From: an uncultured Pseudomonadota bacterium
Lineage (GTDB): Bacteria; SAR324; NAC60-12
Assembly (NCBI GenBank): GCA_913020725.1
Contig: CAJWCD010000002.1
Span: 4,217-68,216 of the forward strand
Length of the DNA: 64,000 nucleotides
Reading direction: 5' to 3'
A program made the position numbers and the translations under genes. The notes under the pieces are model-generated. The model did no database searches. It saw nothing but the letters and a program-made list of their open reading frames with translations, and was not told the DNA's origin. This document shows positions 36,748 to 51,958 of this stretch, one piece after another (positions within the stretch are counted from its first letter, which is position 1; the number at the start of each line of letters is the position of its first letter).

Positions 36748-37854
36748 ATGCCGGGGACGCCGCTGCCGCTCCGGCTGGGCATCCTTGGGCTGGTTCTCGG
36801 ACTCCACGCCGCGCTAATTCCGCTCTTGCCGCAGTGGTTTCGCCCACCGCCACCCCCGGAAAATTCCCTGCTCATCGAACTGGAACGCTGGACGCCACCC
36901 ACGCCTGTTCTGCCTGATTTCCAACCGGAACCACCGTCGCAGCAGCTCACGGCTTCATCGTCTGCGGAGCAAACACCCATCCCGGAACCTCCCGTCGAGG
37001 AACTGGAAACGGATCAATTGGAAGACCTGATTCAGGAAACTCCGGCGGAACTGCTCAGTATGAAGCAGCTCAAGAGTGCCGTCCGCCGCTCCGAACCTCA
37101 GCTTCCCGCGCCGGAACCCCAGCCTGCGGAAAAATCGACGGTTCAGCCTCCCGCCGAAGCTGAAACCTCCCCACCGGAATCAACTGAACCGGGCACCGAT
37201 TCTGCCGAAGCTGAGGAAAACTTGCTGGCACGACTGGAACCACAGATGCCGAATCCGGCCTTGAGTCCGGGGCAGCCCTCGCTTCCACCCAAGCCACAGC
37301 AAGCCGTAGCGATTCCACTGGCTTCCAAAACGCCGCTGCTTCCGGAGCAGTGGTTTTTGCGCGAAGGCATGTCGGTGCCGCTCAAACTCCCGGAACCCTC
37401 CGGACCACTCCAAGTCGGAGGGGAATTGCCCAAACCCACGCTCCTCTCCGTTTCTCCAAATCGCAAATCCGCGCTCCCGCCCCCGCCGGGAGCGGGAGAC
37501 TCCGGACGATCCGGCGGGGGTTTCTTCACGCTCAGTTCCTACGACTGGCCCTACGAGTCGTACATGGGGCGCTGGGCGCAGACCCTCCAATACACTTGGA
37601 ACAACAATCCACCGCTCGACTACGCCCACGGGCTGCGTCCGCAGGGGGGCGATGTGTTTGTGCTGGTGCGCGTTGACCGCTCCGGCACCTTGGAATCCTA
37701 CGAAATCACCAACGTGATCCTCGCTTCTCCGGAAATGGAGGCCTCCGTGATCTCGGCCCTGTTGGCATCCGGGCAACTGTCTGCGCTGCCGGATGATTTC
37801 GGGGAGGACGAACTGGTGGTTCACTTCCGCTTCATCTACCCGCCCCTGCGTTGA
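36748..37854 (+). CDS. TonB-family protein (N-terminal anchor, long Pro-rich spacer, TonB-like C-terminal domain)
   Basis: N-terminal hydrophobic helix LRLGILGLVLGLHAALIPLL, then ~230 aa of P/E/A/Q-rich low complexity, then a C-terminus GGDVFVLVRVDRSGTLESYEITNVILASPEMEASVISALLASGQLSALP...LVVHFRFIY resembling the TonB C-terminal domain. Confidence 0.6.
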   Translation: MPGTPLPLRLGILGLVLGLHAALIPLLPQWFRPPPPPENSLLIELERWTPPTPVLPDFQPEPPSQQLTASSSAEQTPIPEPPVEELETDQLEDLIQETPAELLSMKQLKSAVRRSEPQLPAPEPQPAEKSTVQPPAEAETSPPESTEPGTDSAEAEENLLARLEPQMPNPALSPGQPSLPPKPQQAVAIPLASKTPLLPEQWFLREGMSVPLKLPEPSGPLQVGGELPKPTLLSVSPNRKSALPPPPGAGDSGRSGGGFFTLSSYDWPYESYMGRWAQTLQYTWNNNPPLDYAHGLRPQGGDVFVLVRVDRSGTLESYEITNVILASPEMEASVISALLASGQLSALPDDFGEDELVVHFRFIYPPLR

Positions 37855-40387: not shown

Positions 40388-40750
40388 ATGACCATCACTA
40401 ACGATTATCTCCCCATCCTGATCCTGATTCTTGTGGGTGCAGGCCTTGCGGGGATGTTCACCATCATTGGTTTGGTGGTCGGCCCCAAGCTGCGTACCCG
40501 TGAGAAGGCGGCCCCATTCGAGTCCGGCTTCATCGGCAAAGGCATGGAGGGCCATCGCTACGACGTCAAGTTCTTCATGACTGCGTTGGTCTTTTTGGTT
40601 TTTGACGTGGAGATTGTCTTTCTCTACCCGTGGACGGTGCAACTCCGTGAGTTGGGCTGGTTCGGGTTCATCGCGAGCATGGTGTTCATTTCGGTGCTGA
40701 CGCTTGGGTTGGTTTACGATTGGAAGAAAGGTGCACTCGAATGGGAGTGA
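40388..40750 (+). CDS. nuoA: NADH-quinone oxidoreductase subunit A
   Basis: Three TM helices and the conserved ...FESGF...RYDVKFF..AL.FLVFDVE..FLYPW motif. Start taken at ATG 40388 (tracked ORF from 40355). Confidence 0.88.
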
Positions 40751-40775
40751 CGAAACAACGATATTAGGAGACGAT

Positions 40776-41480
40776 ATGGCTGCGGCAAACTACGGAGATT
40801 TTCTGACCACCACCTTCGACAACGTGGTGAACTGGTCGCGAAAATTCTCGCTGTTCCAGTACCCCTTTGTGACGGCGTGTTGCGGGATGGAGTACATGGC
40901 GGCAGCGTGTTCGCATTATGATATTGCACGCTTCGGTGCAGAAATCCCACGCTTTTCGCCAAGGCAGTCGGATGTCCTCTGGGTGGTCGGCACGATCACG
41001 CACAAGATGGCTCCGGTGCTGAAGACGATCTACGACCAGATGGCCGAGCCGAAGTGGGTGATAGCCTTTGGCGCCTGTGCGTCATCCGGGGGTTTTTACC
41101 AGAACTACTCGGTGCTTCAGGGCATTGATCGCCTGATTCCGGTCGATGTGTACATCGCCGGCTGCCCCCCGCGTCCGGAAGCCGTGCTTGACGGTCTGAT
41201 GGAGTTGCAGCATCGCATCCAGAACGATGGGCCGACCGTCGAGAGCGGGATGCTCAACCCGTCCATGGCGCGGCACCGCGAGCAGAAACTCGACCACCTC
41301 AGTCGCTACTTCGAGATCCCGGACAAGCAACTGTTGGAAAACACTCAGAATCCCAAAAGCAACCGCAGCACCAAACCCGGCTATGTGTATTCCGATGAAA
41401 ACGTGGTCGTGCGCCCGCACATGGGTTACGACTCGCCTGCTGACCAGCGCAAGAAAGAGGCACTCCGCGAAGAGTCCTGA
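40776..41480 (+). CDS. nuoB: NADH-quinone oxidoreductase subunit B (N2 Fe-S), with ~80-aa C-terminal extension
   Basis: [17 protein letters not shown] and [11 protein letters not shown] cluster ligand motifs. The extra C-terminal tail ...[37 protein letters not shown] is not typical of NuoB. Confidence 0.9.
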
Positions 41481-41512
41481 TCCTGCGGAAAAACTCGTCC
41501 TGACCCACGCAC

Positions 41513-42061
41513 ATGACTGAAACCACCACGGTTCCGGAGTCCGAAACTCCGAGGGCGCTCACGGCCCTGCTCCAGCAGCAGTTTCCGGACACGCTCATTG
41601 ATTTCCACAATCACCGCGGCGATGAAACGGTCCGGGTCAAGCGCGAGGCGATTGTGTCCGTCTGCCAGTTCTTGCGCGATGATCCCCGTTGCAAGTTCGA
41701 ATTGATGGTTGACCTGACCGCAGTGGATTATTTTGAACAACACCGCGAACCGCGCTTTGAGATGGTGTATCACTTCAAATCGCTCACCCACGGACACCGC
41801 TTGCGTGTCAAGACTCCGGTTCCGGAGGACGATTGCCGGGTGGATTCGATCCACGAACTTTGGGAAGCGGTCAACTGGTATGAGCGTGAGTGCTGGGACA
41901 TGTTCGGCATCGAGTTCACGGGGCATCCGAACCTCACGCGCCTGCTCATGTACGAGCAGTTCGAAGGGCATCCCCTGCGTAAAGACTACCCCATGGATCG
42001 CCAGCAACCTATTATAGAACTGCGCGAGATTGACGAACGAAATCAGTACGGAAGGGCATGA
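41513..42061 (+). CDS. nuoC: NADH-quinone oxidoreductase subunit C
   Basis: 182 aa with the 30-kDa subunit motif ...WYERECWDMFGIEFTGHPNLTRLL. Confidence 0.88.
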   Translation: MTETTTVPESETPRALTALLQQQFPDTLIDFHNHRGDETVRVKREAIVSVCQFLRDDPRCKFELMVDLTAVDYFEQHREPRFEMVYHFKSLTHGHRLRVKTPVPEDDCRVDSIHELWEAVNWYERECWDMFGIEFTGHPNLTRLLMYEQFEGHPLRKDYPMDRQQPIIELREIDERNQYGRA

Positions 42062-43287
42062 GCATGGAGAGCGCACTCGCAGAACCTCAACTTTCTAGAC
42101 TCCCCCTCGAAGCCGAAGAGGATACTTCGATCATGGCGATTGAGGTGGGGCCGGCGCATCCCGCGATGCATGGAATCGTGCGCTTCACCACCTATGTGGA
42201 TGGCGAGACAATCGTGGACATGGTTCCGGAAATCGGCTACTTGCACCGGGGCTTTGAGAAGGAATCCGAAAACTCAAAGTGGATTCAGGTCATCCCCTAC
42301 ACCGACCGCCTCAACTACGTCTCGCCTCTGCTCAACAACATCGGCTACTCGATGGCCGTGGAAAAGCTCTTCGGGGCCGAGGTGCCACGGCGGGCGGAGT
42401 ACACCCGTGTCATCATGGGAGAAATCTCCCGGATCACCGATCACCTCACCTGCGTTGGCGCGGCGGCGATGGAAGTGGGTGCGTTCACCTTCTTCCTCTG
42501 GTTCATCAAGGCCCGCGAATACCTCTGGGAACTCATCGAGCAGGTCAGCGGGGCGCGGATGACGACGAACTGGACGCGCTTCGGCGGCAACGCCACCGAC
42601 CTTCCGGACGGCTTCCTCGACGACTTGCAGGAACGGCTCGACAAGGTCAAGGACATCCTCGACGAGTGCGACAAGCTGCTCTCGAAAAACAAGATTTTCA
42701 TTGACCGCGTCAAGGACGTGGGGACGATCTCGAAGGAAGACGCGCTTTCCTTCGGGTTCTCCGGGCCAATGCTGCGTGCTTGCGGGGTGCCGTTTGACGT
42801 GCGGCGCTCCGATCCCCACTCGGTCTATGACGAACTCGATTTCGAGATTCCGGTCGGCACTGTGGGCGACTGCTTCGACCGCTACCTCGTTCGCATGGAA
42901 GAGATGCGCCAGAGCATCTCCATCATCGAGCAGGCGGCGGACAAGATGCCCTACGGCCCGATCATGACCGACCAGCGCTGGGTTGACTATCCGGACAAGA
43001 AGGAGGTGTACGGCAACATCGAGGGATTGATCGAACACTTCAAGATGGTCATGGAAGGGCACCAGCCTCCGAAAGGCGAGGCCTATGTAGCCGTCGAGGG
43101 CGGCAACGGCGAGGTCGGTTTTTATGTCGTCTCAGACGGCTCCGGAGACCCCGTGCGAGTGCGGTTGCGCCCTCCGTGCTTCAACTATGTTCAGGCCATG
43201 AGGCACATGACCATCGGCCACTACATTGCCGACATCGTGCCCATCTTCGGCTCCATCAACATGATCGGCGGGGAGTTAGATCGCTAA
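42058..43287 (+). CDS. nuoD: NADH-quinone oxidoreductase subunit D (49 kDa)
   Basis: 409 aa with GPAHPAMHGI...PEIGYLHRG...RxxYV..L motifs. Overlaps the nuoC stop. Confidence 0.93.
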   Translation: MSMESALAEPQLSRLPLEAEEDTSIMAIEVGPAHPAMHGIVRFTTYVDGETIVDMVPEIGYLHRGFEKESENSKWIQVIPYTDRLNYVSPLLNNIGYSMAVEKLFGAEVPRRAEYTRVIMGEISRITDHLTCVGAAAMEVGAFTFFLWFIKAREYLWELIEQVSGARMTTNWTRFGGNATDLPDGFLDDLQERLDKVKDILDECDKLLSKNKIFIDRVKDVGTISKEDALSFGFSGPMLRACGVPFDVRRSDPHSVYDELDFEIPVGTVGDCFDRYLVRMEEMRQSISIIEQAADKMPYGPIMTDQRWVDYPDKKEVYGNIEGLIEHFKMVMEGHQPPKGEAYVAVEGGNGEVGFYVVSDGSGDPVRVRLRPPCFNYVQAMRHMTIGHYIADIVPIFGSINMIGGELDR

Positions 43288-43312
43288 AGAATGCTCTGCC
43301 TAAACGGATTCC

Positions 43313-43489
43313 GTGGTCTTTGTTCCCCATGCAGAAAGTGAGTATCAACGACTTGTCGCTGTATTGGATAATTTGATTGATGAAGTGGGTGAAGATGAGA
43401 ATCCTCCCTTGGTTTCCTTGATGGAAGTCGTTGGAGTTCTGATCGAGAAGTATGAGGATGAGCATGTTCCAGAATTGTCAAAAATCTAG
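43313..43489 (+). pseudogene. Remnant of a HigA-family (COG5499-type) antitoxin, N-terminal domain only, truncated before the HTH
   Basis: 58-codon frame ...HAESEYQRLVAVLDNLIDEVGEDENPPLVSLMEVVGVLIEKYEDEHVPELSKI*. It matches the conserved N-terminal module of HigA-like antitoxins (I.tEaeYeaAL..i..L.da.pgt.egd.L..L..LIE.YE..HyPI). No HTH domain follows. Confidence 0.4.
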
Positions 43490-43507
43490 AAGTTGTTAAT
43501 ATCCGAG

Positions 43508-44116
43508 ATGCGAACAGACACGATCACTATCCCCGCCCGTCGCGGCAAGGCCGCACAGGTCAAAGCCGGACAAGGCGTGAAAGTGATCAACACGCATGGG
43601 GCGCAGGTGGTGGACACTTGGGCGTTCCGAGCCGATGACCTGACCGAGTTCATGTCGATGGAACACAGCCGACCCTACTTCATGAAACTGCGCCCAGAAG
43701 CGGGCGACACGCTCGTGACCAACCAGCGTCGTCCAATCCTGACTTTGATCGAGGACACCTCCGGAGGCATTCATGACACCCTGATGGCGGCGTGTGACAA
43801 CCCACGCTTTGGCTTGCTCGGCTGCACGGAGTACCATGACAACTGCACCGATAACCTCGCTGCCGGGATGCAGGAGCTTGGACTCAAAGAGCCGGAAACT
43901 CCGAGTCCGCTCAACCTTTTTATGCACATTCCGTGGACGGTGGAGGGCGGCTTGGCATGGGAAGCTCCGGTTTCGACTCCGGGAAGCTATGTGGTGCTAC
44001 GGGCGGAGATGGACTTGGTGGTCGCGTTTTCGGCGTGCCCCCAAGACATTCTGCCGATCAACGGCGTGATGCGAGCGCCCACTGAGGCACACTTTCAAAT
44101 CCTCGACAACCTGTGA
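43508..44116 (+). CDS. DUF1989 (urea-carboxylase-associated family) protein
   Basis: TITIPARRGKAAQVKAGQGVKVINTHGAQVVDTWAF..., HDTLMAACD and YHDNCTDNL match what I recall of the DUF1989 family. Inserted between nuoD and nuoH. Confidence 0.55.
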   Translation: MRTDTITIPARRGKAAQVKAGQGVKVINTHGAQVVDTWAFRADDLTEFMSMEHSRPYFMKLRPEAGDTLVTNQRRPILTLIEDTSGGIHDTLMAACDNPRFGLLGCTEYHDNCTDNLAAGMQELGLKEPETPSPLNLFMHIPWTVEGGLAWEAPVSTPGSYVVLRAEMDLVVAFSACPQDILPINGVMRAPTEAHFQILDNL

Positions 44117-44144
44117 ACCCTTTGCCGCAAGGCAGAGAACGTAA

Positions 44145-45218
44145 ATGAATCCACTGCTTGAAATCCTCTCGATTCCGCTAGTCCAGACGATCCTGAAGAT
44201 CATGTTCATGATCATGATCTTCGCCATGCCGCTCGGCACTCTGATGACGCTGATGGAGCGCAAGTGGAGCGCCATGGTGCAAGATCGGGTAGGACCGAAC
44301 CGGGCGAACGTTGGGAACTTCCGGGGGCGCGGACTCGCTCATATTGCGGCGGACGCACTCAAGTCCATCTTCAAGGAAGACACGATACCGGAAGGCTCAG
44401 ATCGCTTCCTCTACTTGATCGCACCCTTCTTCGGATTGATCGCCGGGGTTTCGGTTTTTGCGATTGTGCCCATCGCCGCACCGATTGGAAACTTCACCTT
44501 TCAGATCACGGATATTGAACCCGGATTGCTCTTCATCTTCGCCATCACCTCCCTGAGCGTCTATGGCGCGGTCCTCGCCGGAGCCAGTTCCAACAGCAAG
44601 TTCGCCTTACTCGGCGGCATCCGAGCCTCAGCGCAGATGATCTCCTATGAAGTCTTCATGGGTCTCGCGCTCATGGGCATCTTCATGGTCTATGGCTCCA
44701 CCCGCGTCAGCGAAATCGTGGACGGCCAGAACGCCTACTGGTTTGGAAGCTTGATTCCAAAATGGGGAATCCTAACCCAACCGCTCGGCTTCCTACTCTT
44801 CACCACGGCTTTGGTCGCAGAAACCAAGCGGGCGCCGTTTGACGCTCCGGAAGGCGAATCCGAAATTGTCGCGGGCTACTTTTTAGAGTATTCTGGAATG
44901 CGCTGGTCGGCGTTCATGCTTGCCGAGTACCTTGCCATCGTCGGAGTTGCTGCACTTCTCACCACGCTCTTCTTCGGCGGCTACCATGTCCCGTGGCTCC
45001 ACCTTTGGGAGAGTGCTCCGGTCTGGTTGGTGCGAGTGCTTCAGTTCACCAAGTTCACCGCGTTTGTGCTCTTCTGTTGCTGGTTCCAGATTCAACTGCG
45101 CTGGACGGTGCCGAAATTCCGCTTCGACCAAACGATGGCCCTCGGCTGGAAAAAACTGCTACCGCTTTCGTTGGCGAACACCGTGGCCACAGCGGCCATC
45201 ATCCTGATTTTTGTCTGA
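44145..45218 (+). CDS. nuoH: NADH-quinone oxidoreductase subunit H
   Basis: 357 aa polytopic protein with ...MERKWSAMVQDRVGPNR... and ...AETKRAPFDAPEGESEIVAGY... motifs. Confidence 0.92.
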   Translation: MNPLLEILSIPLVQTILKIMFMIMIFAMPLGTLMTLMERKWSAMVQDRVGPNRANVGNFRGRGLAHIAADALKSIFKEDTIPEGSDRFLYLIAPFFGLIAGVSVFAIVPIAAPIGNFTFQITDIEPGLLFIFAITSLSVYGAVLAGASSNSKFALLGGIRASAQMISYEVFMGLALMGIFMVYGSTRVSEIVDGQNAYWFGSLIPKWGILTQPLGFLLFTTALVAETKRAPFDAPEGESEIVAGYFLEYSGMRWSAFMLAEYLAIVGVAALLTTLFFGGYHVPWLHLWESAPVWLVRVLQFTKFTAFVLFCCWFQIQLRWTVPKFRFDQTMALGWKKLLPLSLANTVATAAIILIFV

Positions 45219-45226
45219 GAAAATTT

Positions 45227-45805
45227 ATGGAACTGAAAGTCAAACAGATGCAACGGGTGGACGGATTCAAGGAATCCCTCTACCTGCCCGCGCTCTTCAT
45301 GGGATTCCGCCTGACCGTCCGCCACTTCTTCCGCAACCTTTTTGGGTCAAAGGATGTGGTCACGGTGCAGTATCCGGAAGAGCATCGCCCGGTTTCGGTG
45401 CGCTGGCGTGGACGGCATCGGCTCACACGCCGGGAAGACGGCTTCCTCAAATGTGTAGCCTGCTACATGTGCGAAACGGTGTGTCCGGCAAAGTGCATCC
45501 ACATTGACGCGGGAGATCATCCGGACCTCTCGGTGGAGAAATACCCCGTACACTTCGACATTGATGAACTGCGTTGCGTCTTCTGCGGACTCTGCGTGGA
45601 GGCGTGTCCGAAGGAGGCGATTCGGATGGACACCGGTGTGATCTCGATGGCCTTTACATCGCGGAACCCCTTCGATTTTACCCGTGATTTGCTCAAGGAT
45701 GAGTACCAACCCAATGAGGTGACCAAATTCTCGGACGCGGACCTCCCGCAGCCCAAATCCCAAGCAGAGGCGCTTCCTAATTCGGTTGGTCTTCCTGCGG
45801 CATAA
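45227..45805 (+). CDS. nuoI: NADH-quinone oxidoreductase subunit I (2x[4Fe-4S] ferredoxin), with ~50-aa C-terminal extension
   Basis: Two CxxCxxCxxxCP motifs (CVACYMCETVCP, CVFCGLCVEACP). Start set at ATG 45227; the tracked ORF from 44993 overlaps nuoH. Confidence 0.9.
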   Translation: MELKVKQMQRVDGFKESLYLPALFMGFRLTVRHFFRNLFGSKDVVTVQYPEEHRPVSVRWRGRHRLTRREDGFLKCVACYMCETVCPAKCIHIDAGDHPDLSVEKYPVHFDIDELRCVFCGLCVEACPKEAIRMDTGVISMAFTSRNPFDFTRDLLKDEYQPNEVTKFSDADLPQPKSQAEALPNSVGLPAA

Positions 45806-45853: not shown

Positions 45854-47482
45854 TTGACTGGCGAGTCCTTCACTCCGTACGAACAAGCGCGGCTTGCGCC
45901 TTACGTCACCAACACGGACCGCTCCATCTTTGCGCTCACGAACCTCCCAGAGGTGATCAAGGGTGCCCTCTTTTCACGCTACTCCCGTTCCACGCTGGGG
46001 CTGCGGCGTCTCCTGCTCCGGGAATTCATTGACGACGATGCGGCTGAATTCTCCGCAATCCAAGGTGGCATAGGAAACATCGCACAAGACACTGCGCTGG
46101 CGGTTGGACGTGCGCAGTCGTTCTACGACCGCATCCTCGACGGCTACGGGGACGACTCCATTGGCGAACTCGGCGGGGCGCATCTTGCGGTGGAGGAAGT
46201 CTCGATTCTGGCCACCAAAACACTGGAAGACGCTCGCATCGGCGGTTCACCGCTGGAGAAATCGACGCGCTACGTTTCCTTCGGGCAGAAAGTTGCGGGC
46301 GATTACCGTTTCTACAAAGAGCCGCGACTGCTCGACTCCCGACACCGCGAACGCTACCTGAACGCCTGCCGGACGCTGTTTGACACCTACGATCAACTCA
46401 ACGAACCGATCCGCGAGTACGTCCGCAGCCGCTTGCCCCGTGATCCAAACACCCCGGAGGCCGCTTACGAACGTTCCGTCCGCGCCTTGGGCTTTGACTT
46501 CATCCGGGGGCTGTTGCCCGCTGCGACCCTCACGAACATGGGGGTGTTCGGCAATGGGCGCTTCTTTGAAAGCCTCATCTCCCGGCTCCACATTGAACCT
46601 CTCCAGGAATTTCAGGACATCGCCCAAGCTTCTTGGGAAGAGTTGGCAAAGGTGGCCCCGTCCTTCATCCGTCGTGCCCATCCGGATCATCGGCACTTTC
46701 AAGGCTACGCCGCATTCATGGAAGCTCAACGGCAAAAAATTCAGTCGGTTGCCGAGCAGCTTGAACAGGGAAGTGCAGAGCCGCTTTCTCTCCCTGCCGG
46801 AACCTCCGGGGAGGTGCGTTTGGTGGAATGGGACGCTGACGCCGAGATCAAACTGCTGGCGGCCTTGCTGTACGAACACACGGCGTTGCCGCTCCAGCAG
46901 GTGCAGGAGCAGGTTCGGCAACTGCCCGATGCCGAGCGCGAACGCATTGTCCGGGAAAGCATCGCCCTGCGCGAACACCGACGACACAAGCCGCCACGGG
47001 CACTGGAGCGTGTGTTCTACACCTTCGATTTGTTGGGCGATTATGGCATGTACCGCGACTTGCATCGTCACCGGATGCTCACGCAATGGCGGCAACCGCT
47101 GACCACGCGGTTCGGTTACAACACCCCTGTGGAACTGGAAGACGCCGGACTCGCCCAGCCCTACCACGCTGCAATGGCACAGGCGGCAGCAACATTTGAA
47201 GCAATTGCGGTGGACTATCCGCACGAAGCCCAATATGTCGTGCCGATGGCCTACCGCATCCGCTGGGCGATGCATATCAATCTGCGAGCGTTGCTGTGGC
47301 TTGTTGAATTGCGCAGCACACCGCAAGGTCATCCCGGCTACCGCCACATCGCGCAGGAACTCTTCCGGGAGGTAAAACGCGTACAACCTCGGTTGGCCGA
47401 GTGGATGAAGTTTGTTGACCTTGGCAACTACGCCTTGGGTCGCCTTGATGCCGAAGTCCGGCAGGAATCCAAGTCACCGTGA
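45854..47482 (+). CDS. Long-form ThyX-like protein (FAD-dependent thymidylate synthase family fold, apparently duplicated, non-canonical motifs)
   Basis: 542 aa, TTG start. The second half has ThyX-like ...LHRHRMLTQWRQPLTTRFGYN (compare RHRx7SxRY) and ...WAMHINLRALLWLVELRSTPQGHPGYRHIAQ (compare the NaRSLmnFlnLR..hAqwEI motif). The first half has a ThyX-like N-terminus and a compressed SRHRERY. Confidence 0.55.
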   Translation: MTGESFTPYEQARLAPYVTNTDRSIFALTNLPEVIKGALFSRYSRSTLGLRRLLLREFIDDDAAEFSAIQGGIGNIAQDTALAVGRAQSFYDRILDGYGDDSIGELGGAHLAVEEVSILATKTLEDARIGGSPLEKSTRYVSFGQKVAGDYRFYKEPRLLDSRHRERYLNACRTLFDTYDQLNEPIREYVRSRLPRDPNTPEAAYERSVRALGFDFIRGLLPAATLTNMGVFGNGRFFESLISRLHIEPLQEFQDIAQASWEELAKVAPSFIRRAHPDHRHFQGYAAFMEAQRQKIQSVAEQLEQGSAEPLSLPAGTSGEVRLVEWDADAEIKLLAALLYEHTALPLQQVQEQVRQLPDAERERIVRESIALREHRRHKPPRALERVFYTFDLLGDYGMYRDLHRHRMLTQWRQPLTTRFGYNTPVELEDAGLAQPYHAAMAQAAATFEAIAVDYPHEAQYVVPMAYRIRWAMHINLRALLWLVELRSTPQGHPGYRHIAQELFREVKRVQPRLAEWMKFVDLGNYALGRLDAEVRQESKSP

Positions 47483-47584: not shown

Positions 47585-48832
47585 ATGGATAAACCCAAAC
47601 ATATCGTCCTGACCTCTCATCCGGGACGCGAGGAACAACGCGGCCCGAAAATCCAATGGGGGGAGGCCGACCCCAAAGTGCGAGGGCCAGTGATCGGCTC
47701 GGTGCAAAACCCGGCCAAGCGCAACGTCATCGGCGCGCACTCCGGCTCGTACGCCATCTACCGTGCCCTTGCGGTGGCGTCCGGACAACTGGATGCGGAT
47801 CATGTTCCGGACCTCACGGACACCACCCCGATTGTTCCCTTGGGGCCGCATCCGCAGTGGCATGATCCGGACAAGATTGTTGCGCTCGATCCTTTCGGGC
47901 ATCTCATTGGAGAGGTGTTTGCGGATGAATTGAAATCCGGTCTCGACATCCGCCCGACGATTGCAGTGACGCGGGCGCGGCTGCACCTTCCGGAATTCCA
48001 GATGGCGGTGAAGGAAGGCCGCATGATTCCGGACGGCAAAATCCTGCTGAAGTCCGGCGAGGTCAGCGTGACGAAAGTCGCGGTCGAACCGGTCTGGCAC
48101 CTTCCGGGCGTGGCGAAGCGTTTTGACATTGGCGAGTCGCAGTTGCGCCGCAGCCTCTTTGAGCAAACCGGAGGCATGTTTCCGGAACTGGTGACTCGCC
48201 CCGACCACCATGTTTTCCTTCCGCCCATCGGCAGCATCACGATCTATGTCGTCGGCGACCTCGCGGCGGTCACGGACCCGAAACGCAAACTGGCCTGCCG
48301 CGTCCACGACGAGTGCAACGGCTCGGATGTGTTCGGCTCCGACATCTGCACCTGCCGCCCCTACCTCATTCACGGCATCGAGGTCTGCGTGGAAACCGCG
48401 CAACAGGGCGGTGCAGGCGTAATCGCGTATTTCCGCAAAGAAGGCCGTGCTTTGGGCGAAGTCACGAAATTCCTCGTTTACAATGCTCGCAAGCGGCAGG
48501 AAGGCGGGGACCGTGCCGAAACCTACTTTGAGCGCACCGAATGCATCGCAGGGGTGCAGGACATGCGCTTTCAGCAACTCATGCCGGACGTGCTGCACTG
48601 GTTGGGCATCACCCACATCGACCGCCTTGTTTCGATGAGCAACATGAAATACGACGCCATCGCGGGGCAGGGCATCACGGTCGGGGAGCGCGTGGCGATT
48701 CCGGACGATCAGATTCCAGACGACGCCAAGGTTGAGATTGACGCGAAAAAAGCGGCGGGCTACTTCACTCCGGAAGCGGTGGATTCGAGTTCGCTTGGGG
48801 AAACCACCGGACGCGACTTGGGAGAGTTTTGA
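47585..48832 (+). CDS. GTP cyclohydrolase II family protein with ~230-aa N-terminal extension (URC1-like)
   Basis: C-terminal domain ...CRVHDECNGSDVFGSDICTCRPYL...IAYFRKEGRALG...LGITHIDRLVSMSN has RibA zinc-ligand cysteines and the R/K-E-G-R motif. 415 aa matches the URC1 architecture, not plain RibA. Confidence 0.7.
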   Translation: MDKPKHIVLTSHPGREEQRGPKIQWGEADPKVRGPVIGSVQNPAKRNVIGAHSGSYAIYRALAVASGQLDADHVPDLTDTTPIVPLGPHPQWHDPDKIVALDPFGHLIGEVFADELKSGLDIRPTIAVTRARLHLPEFQMAVKEGRMIPDGKILLKSGEVSVTKVAVEPVWHLPGVAKRFDIGESQLRRSLFEQTGGMFPELVTRPDHHVFLPPIGSITIYVVGDLAAVTDPKRKLACRVHDECNGSDVFGSDICTCRPYLIHGIEVCVETAQQGGAGVIAYFRKEGRALGEVTKFLVYNARKRQEGGDRAETYFERTECIAGVQDMRFQQLMPDVLHWLGITHIDRLVSMSNMKYDAIAGQGITVGERVAIPDDQIPDDAKVEIDAKKAAGYFTPEAVDSSSLGETTGRDLGEF

Positions 48833-48834
48833 GC

Positions 48835-50079
48835 ATGGACGCCCAGGAAGCAGTCGCGCACTTGCGCTCTCCTGCAACGATTCGGGAACGCTGCCGAATG
48901 GTGTACGAGGCCGCACGGTCGGATCAGCTCGAACACTTTCGGTTGGTTCCGGAACGACTGCCCGATGCTGTGGAAACCGTGGTTGCGGAAATCCGCAAAA
49001 ACTACCCCGCGCTCGACATTCCGTACCACAGCCGCTGGCGGCATTTTGTGATTGATCGCGTGGATCATGCCACTCCCGTGCTGCGGCCACGGGTGGAAAC
49101 CGATGCTCGTGAGCGCCTGCGGGTGCAGTTTGAACTTGCCGTCACCAGTGTGTTGCTGGACGCCGGAGCCGGAGCCGGCTGGTGTTTTCAGAATCCCTTA
49201 GATCGGCGTTCGCACGGACGCTCCGAAGGACTCGCCCTCGCCAGCTTTTACCTGTTTGCGGATGGTGCATTTTCGAGCAATCCCGACCATCCGTTTCGGG
49301 CCGATGCCGAAGGACTCCGGAACTTTAGCGCGGACAAACTGGCAGAGGGGTTTCAGGTTTCTGCCGACAACCCGCTGGTGGGCTTGGAGAAACGGGCGGA
49401 ACTGCTCCGCAAGCTGGGAGAGGCGCTGACCACCCGCCCAAGTCAATTTGGCGGCGCACCTGCACGCATCGGCGATCTCGCTGATTGGTTCTGGGGTGAG
49501 GCAACACCCAACGATCAGGGCACGCGTTCGCTTCCAGCAGCAGCCATCCTGCGGGTCTTGCTCGACAGTTTCAGCAGCATTTGGCCCTCGCGTTTGGAAA
49601 TTGATGGGCAGCCGCTCGGTGATGTTTGGCGGTATCCGGTGGTGCAGACAAACGACCTCACCAACGGACTGATTCCCTTTCACAAACTCTCGCAATGGCT
49701 GGCGTATTCACTGGTGGAACCGTTGGAGGAATCCGGCCTCCGCATTGTGGAACTGGATGCGCTCACCGGACTTCCGGAATACCGCAACGGCGGGCTGTTC
49801 GTGGACCTTGGAGTGCTGGAACCCAAGCACCCGGAGGTGCTGGAAACCGTGCATTCGGTGGATTCGGAGGCGATCGTCGAGTGGCGGGCGCTCACCGTCT
49901 GTTTGCTTGATGAAATCGCCAAAGGGGTCCGTGTTGAGTTGGGGTGCACTCCGGAAACGCTACCCCTGAGCCGCATTCTGCAAGGTGGAACTTGGAGTGC
50001 CGGACGTGCTCTTGCCCAAGCCAAACGTCCGGGAGGGGTGCCGCCAATCCAAATTGAAAGCGACGGCACTGTGTTCTGA
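48835..50079 (+). CDS. Hypothetical protein, possibly DUF1688/URC4-like (assigned from genomic context)
   Basis: ~415 aa, no family I can confirm by eye. Abuts the URC1-like gene (stop/start 2 nt apart) and precedes upp, the arrangement reported for bacterial URC1-URC4 pairs. Confidence 0.4.
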
Positions 50080-50107
50080 TTTTCGTTCACTCATTCAGGA
50101 GAATTCC

Positions 50108-50740
50108 ATGTCTGAAAACTTTATCCACATCAAGCACCCGCTCGTTCAGCACAAGCTCTCGCTGATGCGCAAAAAGGACACCTCCACCAAAGGATTCCGC
50201 GACCTCATCCGCGAGGTTGGAATGCTGCTGGCTTATGAGGTGACGAAGGATTTGCCGCTCAAGTATGAGGAGATCGAGACTCCGTTGCAGAAGATGAACG
50301 CCCCCTTTCTTGGCGGCAAGAAGCTCTGCCTTGTGCCAATTCTACGAGCCGGAATGGGATTGCTTGACGGTTTTTTGGCGATGATTCCTGCCGCTCGTGT
50401 AGGGCATATCGGACTCTACCGCGATCCAGAAACCCTCGTAGCCGTCGAGTACTACCTCAAACTTCCGGATTCCGTGGATGAGCGGCTTGTGATCGTCATT
50501 GATCCGATGCTTGCCACAGGACATTCCGCAGCCGCAGCCGTTTCCCGGATCAAGGAAAGCGGCGCGACCTCCATCCGTTTCGTCTGCCTGCTCGCTGCTC
50601 CGGAAGGCATCCGGTACTTCAACAAGGAGCATTCTGATGTCCCAGTTTATGCTGCGGCTTTGGACGAACGACTCAACGATCACGCCTACATTCTCCCCGG
50701 ACTCGGAGATGCTGGAGACCGGATTTTCGGTACCAAGTGA
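50108..50740 (+). CDS. upp: Uracil phosphoribosyltransferase
   Basis: Near-colinear with E. coli Upp: ...[13 protein letters not shown]..., ...[19 protein letters not shown]..., ...[17 protein letters not shown]. Confidence 0.93.
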
Positions 50741-50768: not shown

Positions 50769-51395
50769 ATGAGGCTGCAAGTCGCCTTTGATCTGCTCAG
50801 TTTGGAGGAGGTACTGGCATTGTTGGAGGAAGTGCATGACCTTGTGGATATCGTGGAAATTGGCACCCCACTGATTCTCAAGGAGGGCTTGAAGGCGGTC
50901 ACGAAGATCAAGGAATGCTACCCGGATCAGGTGGTGCTCGCTGACCTGAAGATCATGGATGCGGGTGCCCTTGAAGCGGAAATCGGGTTTGATGCGGGAG
51001 CAGACATGATCACTGTGCTGGGGCTGGCTTCACGGACGACCAAGAGCGCGGCGAAAAGCACGGCTGAGCAACATGGAGGAAAGATCGTCGTTGACCTGAT
51101 CAACCACCCACATCCTGTGCAGGAATGGGAGGAACTCCGCAAAATCGGTATGGATTTCTGTTGTATCCACACGGCACATGATGATGCACAACAGCACAAC
51201 ACGCCGTTGGAAACACTAGAAAATTTTCACAAAGTCCATGGGGGGAGCAGGGTCGCAGTTGCCGGAGGTGTTAAACCGTCCCTAATTCGTGAGATGAAAT
51301 CCTTTCCGCCGGAGATCGTCGTGGTCGGAAGCTATATTACTGGTGCGGAGGATGCCCGCGAAGCAGTCCAAAAAATTAGAAAAGCGATGGATTGA
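50769..51395 (+). CDS. hxlA: 3-hexulose-6-phosphate synthase / KGPDC-like (OMP-decarboxylase suprafamily)
   Basis: MRLQVAFDLLSLEEVLALLEEV...VDIVEIGTPLILKEGLKAV...ADLKIMDAG is the HPS/KGPDC family pattern. Confidence 0.7.
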   Translation: MRLQVAFDLLSLEEVLALLEEVHDLVDIVEIGTPLILKEGLKAVTKIKECYPDQVVLADLKIMDAGALEAEIGFDAGADMITVLGLASRTTKSAAKSTAEQHGGKIVVDLINHPHPVQEWEELRKIGMDFCCIHTAHDDAQQHNTPLETLENFHKVHGGSRVAVAGGVKPSLIREMKSFPPEIVVVGSYITGAEDAREAVQKIRKAMD

Positions 51396-51958
51396 GGATG
51401 AACTTTGCAGATTATTCCTCAACTGTGTTGAAAGAAATTGAACAGACTCTCAAGCAAGTTGAGGGGTCGAAGCTGTCAGAATTTTCTGTTCAACTGTGGC
51501 AGTCGCCCAAGGTCTTTGTGGCCGGCGCCGGCAGAACCGGTCTAGTCATGCGTTGTTTTGCAATGCGCTTGATGCATTTGGGGTTGTATGTTCAAATTCT
51601 TGGTGACACCCTTACTGGTGCCATGAAAAAGGAGGATTGCTTGCTGATCGGTTCCGGCTCCGGAGAAACCCCTAGTTTGGTGAGCATTGCTGAAAAAGCG
51701 CAGGAACTGGGAGTCCGGATTGTCCTGTTCGGCATCAATCCAGATTCCAGCATCGGAAAATTGGCATCAGATTGTCTGAGGATTCCGGCACCCTCGCCAA
51801 AACTGAATCACGCAGCTGCTTGCCATTCGATTCAGCCCATGGGTTCACTCTTTGAGCAGAGTCTGTTGCTCACCTTGGATTCTCTTGTAGGCGTGATGAT
51901 GCATCAAAAAGGCATGAACTCGAAGAGCATGTTTTTGAACCATGCGAATGTGGAATAA
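51392..51958 (+). CDS. hxlB: 6-phospho-3-hexuloisomerase-like SIS-domain protein
   Basis: SIS domain (...KVFVAGAGRTGLVMRCFAMRLMHLG...LLIGSGSGETPSLV...). 4-nt overlap with the preceding HPS-like gene. Lower GC (~43%). Confidence 0.7.
   Translation: MRMNFADYSSTVLKEIEQTLKQVEGSKLSEFSVQLWQSPKVFVAGAGRTGLVMRCFAMRLMHLGLYVQILGDTLTGAMKKEDCLLIGSGSGETPSLVSIAEKAQELGVRIVLFGINPDSSIGKLASDCLRIPAPSPKLNHAAACHSIQPMGSLFEQSLLLTLDSLVGVMMHQKGMNSKSMFLNHANVE

Follow-up and report, generated by a model that had tools for sequence, protein, structure and literature searches.

The locus examined here raises the question of whether a 542-amino-acid protein that resembles the flavin-dependent thymidylate synthase ThyX, and that at first sight carries substituted catalytic residues, still makes thymidylate or has taken on another function. 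The gene lies in a 64,000-nucleotide stretch of contig CAJWCD010000002.1 (GCA_913020725.1, positions 4,217 to 68,216 of the forward strand; hereafter the window) from an uncultured SAR324 bacterium, and an earlier reading of the letters (hereafter the original prediction) had proposed either a pseudo-dimeric long-form ThyX or a paralogue with changed function. We consider it about 80% probable, from sequence comparisons and predicted structures, that the gene encodes ThyX (EC 2.1.1.148), which converts deoxyuridine monophosphate (dUMP), methylenetetrahydrofolate (CH2-THF) and reduced nicotinamide adenine dinucleotide phosphate (NADPH) to deoxythymidine monophosphate (dTMP), in a long, internally duplicated form in a SAR324-type bacterium. 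Judged by its relatives, it is most likely the housekeeping long-form ThyX of a large and already annotated subfamily.

The chain carries two ThyX folds, in line with the two ThyX-like halves of the original prediction (Table 1). The Pfam family Thy1 (PF02511) matched two stretches (E 2.5e-39, 135.5 bits against a cutoff of 24.8), the best of which covers residues 327-512. A phmmer comparison of the full protein with PDB gave only a marginal match (E 0.38), and half-profiles, built for the N half and the C half from 126 aligned relatives, were needed. The C-half profile matched Thermotoga maritima (Tm) ThyX TM0449 at E 1.3e-14 (the TM0449 sequence used is 100% identical to PDB 1kq4/1o26), and the N-half profile alone, searched over the whole PDB, found Mycobacterium tuberculosis (Mtb) ThyX at E 9.5e-12. 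The AlphaFold2 (AF2) model, a check that the original prediction had suggested, is a confident two-domain model (predicted local distance difference test, pLDDT, 93.4; predicted template modelling score, pTM, 0.91), and among the Foldseek matches listed for it in PDB all are single-domain ThyX chains (TM-score ~0.7 on the target). Modelled on its own, the N half reached a pLDDT of 86.9, with 2af6_A as its best Foldseek match (TM-score on the target 0.61, root-mean-square deviation 2.9 Å); the PDB matches listed for this half, too, are all ThyX.

A direct BLAST comparison of the N half with the C half left the duplication undetected (best E 0.064), and hhalign aligned the two with 86% probability (E 5e-6, 15% identity). 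Because it is visible only by profile comparison and fold, and not by direct BLAST, we regard the internal duplication of the ThyX domain as ancient. The halves are equally conserved, with a mean identity to the query of 0.40 for each across the 126 relatives. Our search of the literature on duplicated, fused or pseudo-dimeric ThyX returned nothing relevant, which is not evidence of novelty; a literature search on thymidylate synthase in SAR324 likewise yielded nothing of use.

The catalytic residues were located from counts over the 126 relatives, with registers taken from profile alignments to the Tm and Mtb enzymes. The N half aligned to Mtb ThyX with no gap through the motif, and its E135, S137, R139 and Y140 fall on Tm E86, S88, R90 and Y91 (Mtb Q103, S105, R107 and Y108). 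Both independent alignments of the C half placed a deletion of ~5 residues where Tm L87-S88-G89-R90-Y91 would fall, and with this loop deleted the C half is without counterparts of Tm E86, S88, R90 and Y91. At the position of the RHR triplet, the N half has D126 (D in 73, R in 24 and W in 13 relatives), A127 (mixed G/A/S/R) and R128 (kept in 125). The C-terminal helix is near-invariant in the C half (N476 in 115, R478 in 121, L486 in 121, R487 in 124 and H493 in 119 relatives), and matches the Tm N163-H178 region, as had been proposed for the ThyX-like helix INLRALLWLVELRS (residues 475-488). The N half has N234 (77) at the N163 position, R236 (R in 72, Q in 51) at R165 (Mtb R190), the mixed S243 at L173, R244 (K in 63, R in 41) at R174 (Mtb R199) and E248 (S in 62, H in 37) at H178. 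The N half has lost the equivalents of R78/H79 and of H178. Within its G99-D100-D101-S102 segment, G99 (124) and S102 (125) are almost always kept, and D100 is D in 110 and H in 15 relatives.

A contiguous RHR-x7-S-x-R-Y was found in neither domain and is complete only across both halves, the N half having D126-A127-R128 followed by the S-x-R-Y loop and the C half having RHR without that loop. With S-x-R-Y preserved in the N half, and RHR together with the flavin helix preserved in the C half, the alignments indicate that the motif is split rather than mutated: the ThyX catalytic motif is divided between the halves and nothing catalytic appears to be substituted. Once gaps were placed correctly, all ThyX catalytic residues were found conserved, counting both halves, which is one of the two conditions under which the original prediction would have seen simply a housekeeping long-form ThyX (the other being that the gene is the only thymidylate synthase of the genome).

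The strings that had suggested otherwise are all present in the protein (SRHRERY at residues 162-168, RHRMLTQWRQPLTTRF at 405-420 and the helix named above), and the first two had been misread. SRHRERY, taken earlier for the motif of the first half, was rejected as such: it lies in a variable helix where only 20, 22 and 17 of the relatives retain R163, H164 and R165, respectively. About 0.16 RHR triplets are expected by chance at the composition of the protein, and the RHR within SRHRERY is, on these counts, a chance match. The Ser-to-Thr and Tyr-to-Phe substitutions seen at catalytic positions in RHRMLTQWRQPLTTRF are most likely a product of misalignment of the motif. T417 and F420 were rejected as substituted catalytic Ser and Tyr, because the loop is deleted there, T417 (T in 68, S in 21, G in 17), R419 (R in only 27) and F420 (L in 57, H in 34, N in 11, F in 7) are unconserved, and the true S137 and Y140 are intact in the N half, where S137/R139/Y140 form the real S-x-R-Y.

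Table 1 Features of the long-form thyX locus, in window coordinates (residue counts are over the 126 aligned relatives; FAD, flavin adenine dinucleotide; ORF, open reading frame; UPRTase, uracil phosphoribosyltransferase)
Feature	Position	Strand	Remarks
nuoI-like 2x[4Fe-4S] gene	45230..45805	+	Directly upstream of thyX, 48-nt gap; neighbour conserved across SAR324
Long-form thyX ORF	45854..47482	+	542 amino acids, TTG start, stop codon included
N-terminal ThyX-fold half, residues 1-306	45854..46771	+	Mtb ThyX profile match, AF2 model, residue table
G99-D100-D101-S102	46148..46159	+	Aligns with canonical G-H-x-S/T (Tm H53..T55, Mtb S71)
E135-K-S137-T-R139-Y140, true S-x-R-Y	46256..46273	+	E 122, S 126, R 125, Y 124 of 126
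S162-RHRERY168	46337..46357	+	Variable helical segment; only Y168 conserved
R218 (Tm R147 / Mtb R172)	46505..46507	+	123/126; N half only, C half has Q460
Inter-domain linker, residues ~307-320	46772..46813	+	Least confident part of the model; AF2 block pLDDT 63 for residues 311-320
C-terminal ThyX-fold half, residues 321-542	46814..47479	+	Pfam stretch 327-512, C-half profile against TM0449
R382-A-L-E385	46997..47008	+	R382 125/126 at the FAD-phosphate Ser/Thr (Tm T55); E385 126/126 at Tm E58
R405-H406-R407, genuine RHR (Tm R78-H79-R80; binds FAD, dUMP)	47066..47074	+	126, 121, 123 of 126
T417-T418-R419-F420	47102..47113	+	Beside the deletion of the S-x-R-Y loop; unconserved
C-terminal flavin/uracil helix region N476-x-R478...E485-L486-R487...G492-H493	47279..47332	+	Tm N163, R165, L173, R174, H178
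URC1-like (GTP_CH_N+GCHII), DUF1688/URC4-like and UPRTase genes	47585..50740	+	Downstream of thyX; of the three, only upp is widely conserved beside thyX

The known ThyX enzymes form 222 homotetramers, and three subunits contribute to each of the four active sites (PMC3498832, PMC11940539). In Mtb numbering, subunit A provides RHR and R199 (Tm R174), subunit B provides S71 and R190 (Tm T55 and R165), and subunit C provides S105, R107 and Y108 (Tm S88, R90 and Y91) (PMC6514825). Across the 126 relatives, near-invariance of the residues with the subunit A role is confined to the C half, and that of the residues with the subunit C role to the N half. Because the equivalents of RHR/R174 and S-x-R-Y come from different subunits in canonical tetramers, a fused chain could build a full site. 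The C half would supply the flavin-side residues (RHR 405-407, N476, R478, L486, R487 and H493), the N half would serve as the substrate-loop donor (E135-S137-R139-Y140 and R218), and one C half together with one N half would give a complete composite site within the fused-chain assembly. By analogy with the subunit roles above (PMC6514825), a homodimer may mimic the tetramer with only two of its four sites complete, that is, two per homodimer and about one FAD per 542-residue chain. It is probably the two C halves that meet around the flavins, since R478 is near-invariant (121/126) and R236 of the N half is kept in only 72/126; the subunit B role would then probably also fall to the C half, with each N half capping one site.

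The assignment of the loop to the N half bears on another explanation, by which catalysis belongs to the C half alone, assembled as in a normal ThyX, beside a pseudo-enzyme N half that is degenerate, regulatory or a scaffold. In its favour, Pfam and TIGRFAM both match the C half more strongly, and RHR and the R174/H178 helix are found there; however, the C half is without the S88/R90/Y91 loop, residues that are kinetically important in Tm ThyX and whose mutation slows methylene transfer, more than 100-fold for Y91A (PMC8316439). The N half, moreover, keeps that loop invariant and is overall as conserved as the C half, and we regard a pseudo-enzyme N half as extremely improbable. Returning to the composite site, a more speculative and rather doubtful extension is that long ThyX is an obligate asymmetric pseudo-heterodimer, in which the halves may have specialised as flavin binder and substrate-loop donor, the sites may have been halved per fold unit, and the pseudo-sites may have been re-used allosterically, for a nucleotide or for folate/NADPH. 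The degenerate pseudo-sites do keep invariant residues (R45, S44, S102, S117 and R128 in the N half; R373, R376 and R382 in the C half).

Compared with the canonical enzymes (T. maritima TM0449, 1o26; M. tuberculosis, 2af6/3gwc), the window protein has their fold in both halves, the same residue set (RHR, E-x-S-x-R-Y, the R147 equivalent, N-x-R, L-R and H) and presumably the same FAD-, CH2-THF- and NADPH-dependent chemistry. Canonical ThyX has 216-270 residues, a contiguous motif and a homotetramer with four sites, whereas the window protein has 542 residues, a split motif and a predicted homodimer with two sites.

The long form is very common, occurring in SAR324, cyanobacteria, Chloroflexi, bacteria of the candidate phyla radiation (CPR), DPANN archaea and phages. 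Profile searches detected proteins named FAD-dependent thymidylate synthase that are 43-52% identical over 97-100% of the query, in cultured cyanobacteria (Fischerella, Chroococcus, Aphanothece and Tumidithrix), Chloroflexus, Roseiflexaceae and DPANN archaea, and public data include a 542-amino-acid protein 99% identical to the window ThyX. For the Fischerella protein, a look-up by exact sequence gave no record. In a library of representatives of 50%-identity clusters we found 4403 matches (735 at E < 1e-30), most of the best ones being 500-600 amino acids long. The annotated long forms (~535-565 amino acids; cyanobacteria, Chloroflexus/Roseiflexaceae, DPANN, Woesebacteria, Dormibacteria, and the phages Tunturi_5, gp50, and Ma-LMM01) are the family of the SAR324 protein. 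The split motif is common to the 126 relatives and the Tunturi_5 protein, and the SAR324 copy differs from the other long forms in nothing essential; it follows nuoI, and it precedes URC1/URC4 in the lineage of the window only.

In distant genomes the long form lies among genes of thymidylate metabolism. A Woesebacteria-type contig encodes dcd, dut, the long thyX, a ClpB-like gene and tmk in that order, and the jumbo phage Tunturi_5 encodes a dUTPase, a helicase, a dCMP deaminase and then a 518-amino-acid 'thymidylate synthase' (gp50) with the same split motif; in a Dormibacteria locus the long thyX follows dnaX, ybaB and recR. Natural fusions were detected among the cluster representatives, with an N-terminal dUTPase (P0144, 703 amino acids) or an N-terminal thymidylate kinase (P0265, 741 amino acids) joined to a long ThyX. 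Gene order, phage neighbours and fusions tie the long form, indirectly, to the supply of dUMP and the use of dTMP.

Other variants of the long form were also seen. Three representatives (P0187, 717 amino acids; P0270, 667; P0195, 640) are extended long ThyX proteins with extra regions without a Pfam match. Two viral 'thymidylate synthase' models in BFVD, A0A7D4 (Microcystis phage LMM01, 491 amino acids) and A0A6B7EUB9 (461 amino acids), align to the whole query (539-542 columns, E 7e-18 and 8e-16), which suggests that shorter two-domain forms occur in cyanophages too. Hypothetical proteins of the Vibrio phages vB_VmeM-Yong (MK308674-MK308677, matches H2-H5) align with residues 70-232 of the N half only (26% identity, E 2e-4), and may represent ThyX domains of the N-half kind that stand alone in jumbo phages.

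ThyX of Chlamydia trachomatis (CT632) is reportedly an active flavin-dependent thymidylate synthase of ~529 amino acids, about twice the canonical length, in work attributed to Griffin et al. in 2005. If it is true that CT632 shares this architecture, it would be an experimental precedent for the long form. Chlamydial ThyX sequences are very divergent (PMC6171736).

Several observations weigh against the assignment as a thymidylate synthase. The position of Tm H53 is occupied by Asp in the N half and by Pro in the C half. The score against the thyX equivalog TIGR02170 (NCBIfam) is 61.8 bits, below the cutoff of 87.9, with the best stretch covering only residues 438-517 of the C half. No solved long-form ThyX was found, every solved ThyX chain from our PDB searches having 216-270 amino acids. 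Finally, the atypical ThyX of Corynebacterium glutamicum (3fnn, 3ge9), which has a single-domain ThyX fold and ranks among the closer structural matches of the window N half, is dispensable for thymidylate synthesis according to the titles of its entries; it cautions against reading an essential role from a ThyX fold.

The score below the equivalog cutoff would also fit a ThyX paralogue that has changed function, for example a nucleotide-binding or nucleotide-modifying protein for URC-like uracil catabolism, or an enzyme with a substrate other than dUMP. Such a role had been suggested by the adjoining URC-like genes, and URC1-like, DUF1688/URC4-like and UPRTase genes do follow thyX directly on the same strand. 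Together they make up a uracil catabolism cluster of the bacterial URC type. URC1 and URC4 lie between thyX and upp (UPRTase) only in the window and two relatives (L002 and L003), and upp is directly next in most of the ~25 other SAR324 loci. URC1/URC4 were absent beside the long thyX in the other SAR324, CPR, Chloroflexi, Dormibacteria, archaeal and phage loci examined. Conserved co-location with URC1 and URC4, by which membership in the uracil-catabolism cluster was assessed, was not found. Because URC1/URC4 sit beside thyX only in these three loci, the URC genes go with upp and not with thyX, and we rejected a functional link between thyX and URC1/URC4. Every known dUMP- and FAD-binding residue is, moreover, kept across the halves, and the genes of orthologues stand among, or are fused with, those for dUTPase, dCTP/dCMP deaminase and thymidylate kinase. 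The suggested tie to the URC-like pathway fails both on this adjacency and on its premise of substituted residues, and we consider a changed function very unlikely. Of the two readings offered by the original prediction, the paralogue is not supported and the pseudo-dimeric long-form ThyX is, by two folds, all catalytic residues across the halves and an annotated family. A false lead is thereby removed, as the gene, rather than a mutated or repurposed ThyX, is most likely the normal thymidylate synthase.

The long-form ThyX might still be auxiliary or non-essential, with the main work left to ThyA or to a short ThyX from another part of the genome, as reported for C. glutamicum. The visible sequence is 64 kb of the genome only, and a precedent is given in the titles of PDB 3fnn and 3ge9. 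Another thyX or a thyA was not found within the window, as had been stated before. Against an auxiliary role, thyX keeps one syntenic position after nuoI across SAR324 loci with identities down to 60%, and its catalytic residues are invariant in either half. The long form is also carried by DPANN archaea and a Woesebacteria-type bacterium, lineages that have generally been reported to have small genomes. In a table of COGs, the counts of ThyX and ThyA, with long and short forms not separated, are near-complementary in several phyla (for example 23 + 8 of 31 in Cyanobacteria), which argues against a merely auxiliary ThyX as well (PMC5954106). Altogether we hold an auxiliary role to be unlikely, and prefer the long-form ThyX as the housekeeping enzyme.

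The coordinates, length and TTG start of the ORF given by the original prediction were reproduced. TTG is the sole in-frame start at the same position in close relatives (L001-L003 and L008), another relative (L004) has an extra upstream GTG, and distant loci have an ATG within 1-3 codons of the window thyX start position. By this comparison the TTG of the long thyX is a credible start.

Because the motif is split, RHRx7S motif checks and the TIGR02170 cutoff miss or mis-score the long form. The point of modest interest is the complementary split of active-site residues between the halves of a protein for which no solved long-form structure was found; such a structure would reveal by what route a 222 homotetramer whose subunits share their active sites becomes a fused dimer that has half as many. 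The long form would also be relevant to the design of ThyX inhibitors, if pathogens carry it.

SAR324 loci share the order nuoD, nuoH, nuoI and long thyX, with upp directly next in most. No promoter- or terminator-like site was found in the 48-nt gap between nuoI and thyX. The nuo cluster of the window (40704-45805, +) looks partial, with nuoB, nuoC, nuoD, a DUF1989 gene, nuoH and nuoI before thyX in an order conserved across SAR324; nuoE-G were not seen between nuoD and nuoH, nor nuoJ-N after nuoI, in genes annotated to ~56 kb. The DUF1989 gene (PF09347, E 7e-50; 43493-44116, +) lies between nuoD and nuoH, and among related loci was found only in L002, a carrier of URC1/URC4. DUF1989 proteins are often annotated as urea-carboxylase-associated, and the gene may belong with the URC-like genes. 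In one SAR324-like contig (L037, 3001-4579) thyX follows a nuoI-like gene as two ORFs, a 298-amino-acid N half and a 238-amino-acid C half that overlap by 35 nt. It was considered as a naturally split two-gene ThyX and not used as evidence, as it is probably a frameshift or assembly error in one assembly.

The UPRTase ORF of the window overlaps the end of URC4 by ~95 nt, and its Pfam match begins at residue 49; the true start is probably further downstream. Upstream of metG, a 368-amino-acid ORF (36748-37854, +) is without a Pfam match at E 1e-5. Downstream (50769-51958, +), an OMPdecase-family gene and, after it, a SIS-domain gene resemble the hexulose-phosphate synthase and phosphohexulose isomerase pair of the ribulose monophosphate (RuMP) pathway, and this pair is followed by a sugar-type ATP-binding cassette (ABC) transporter (SBP_bac_8 and two permeases).

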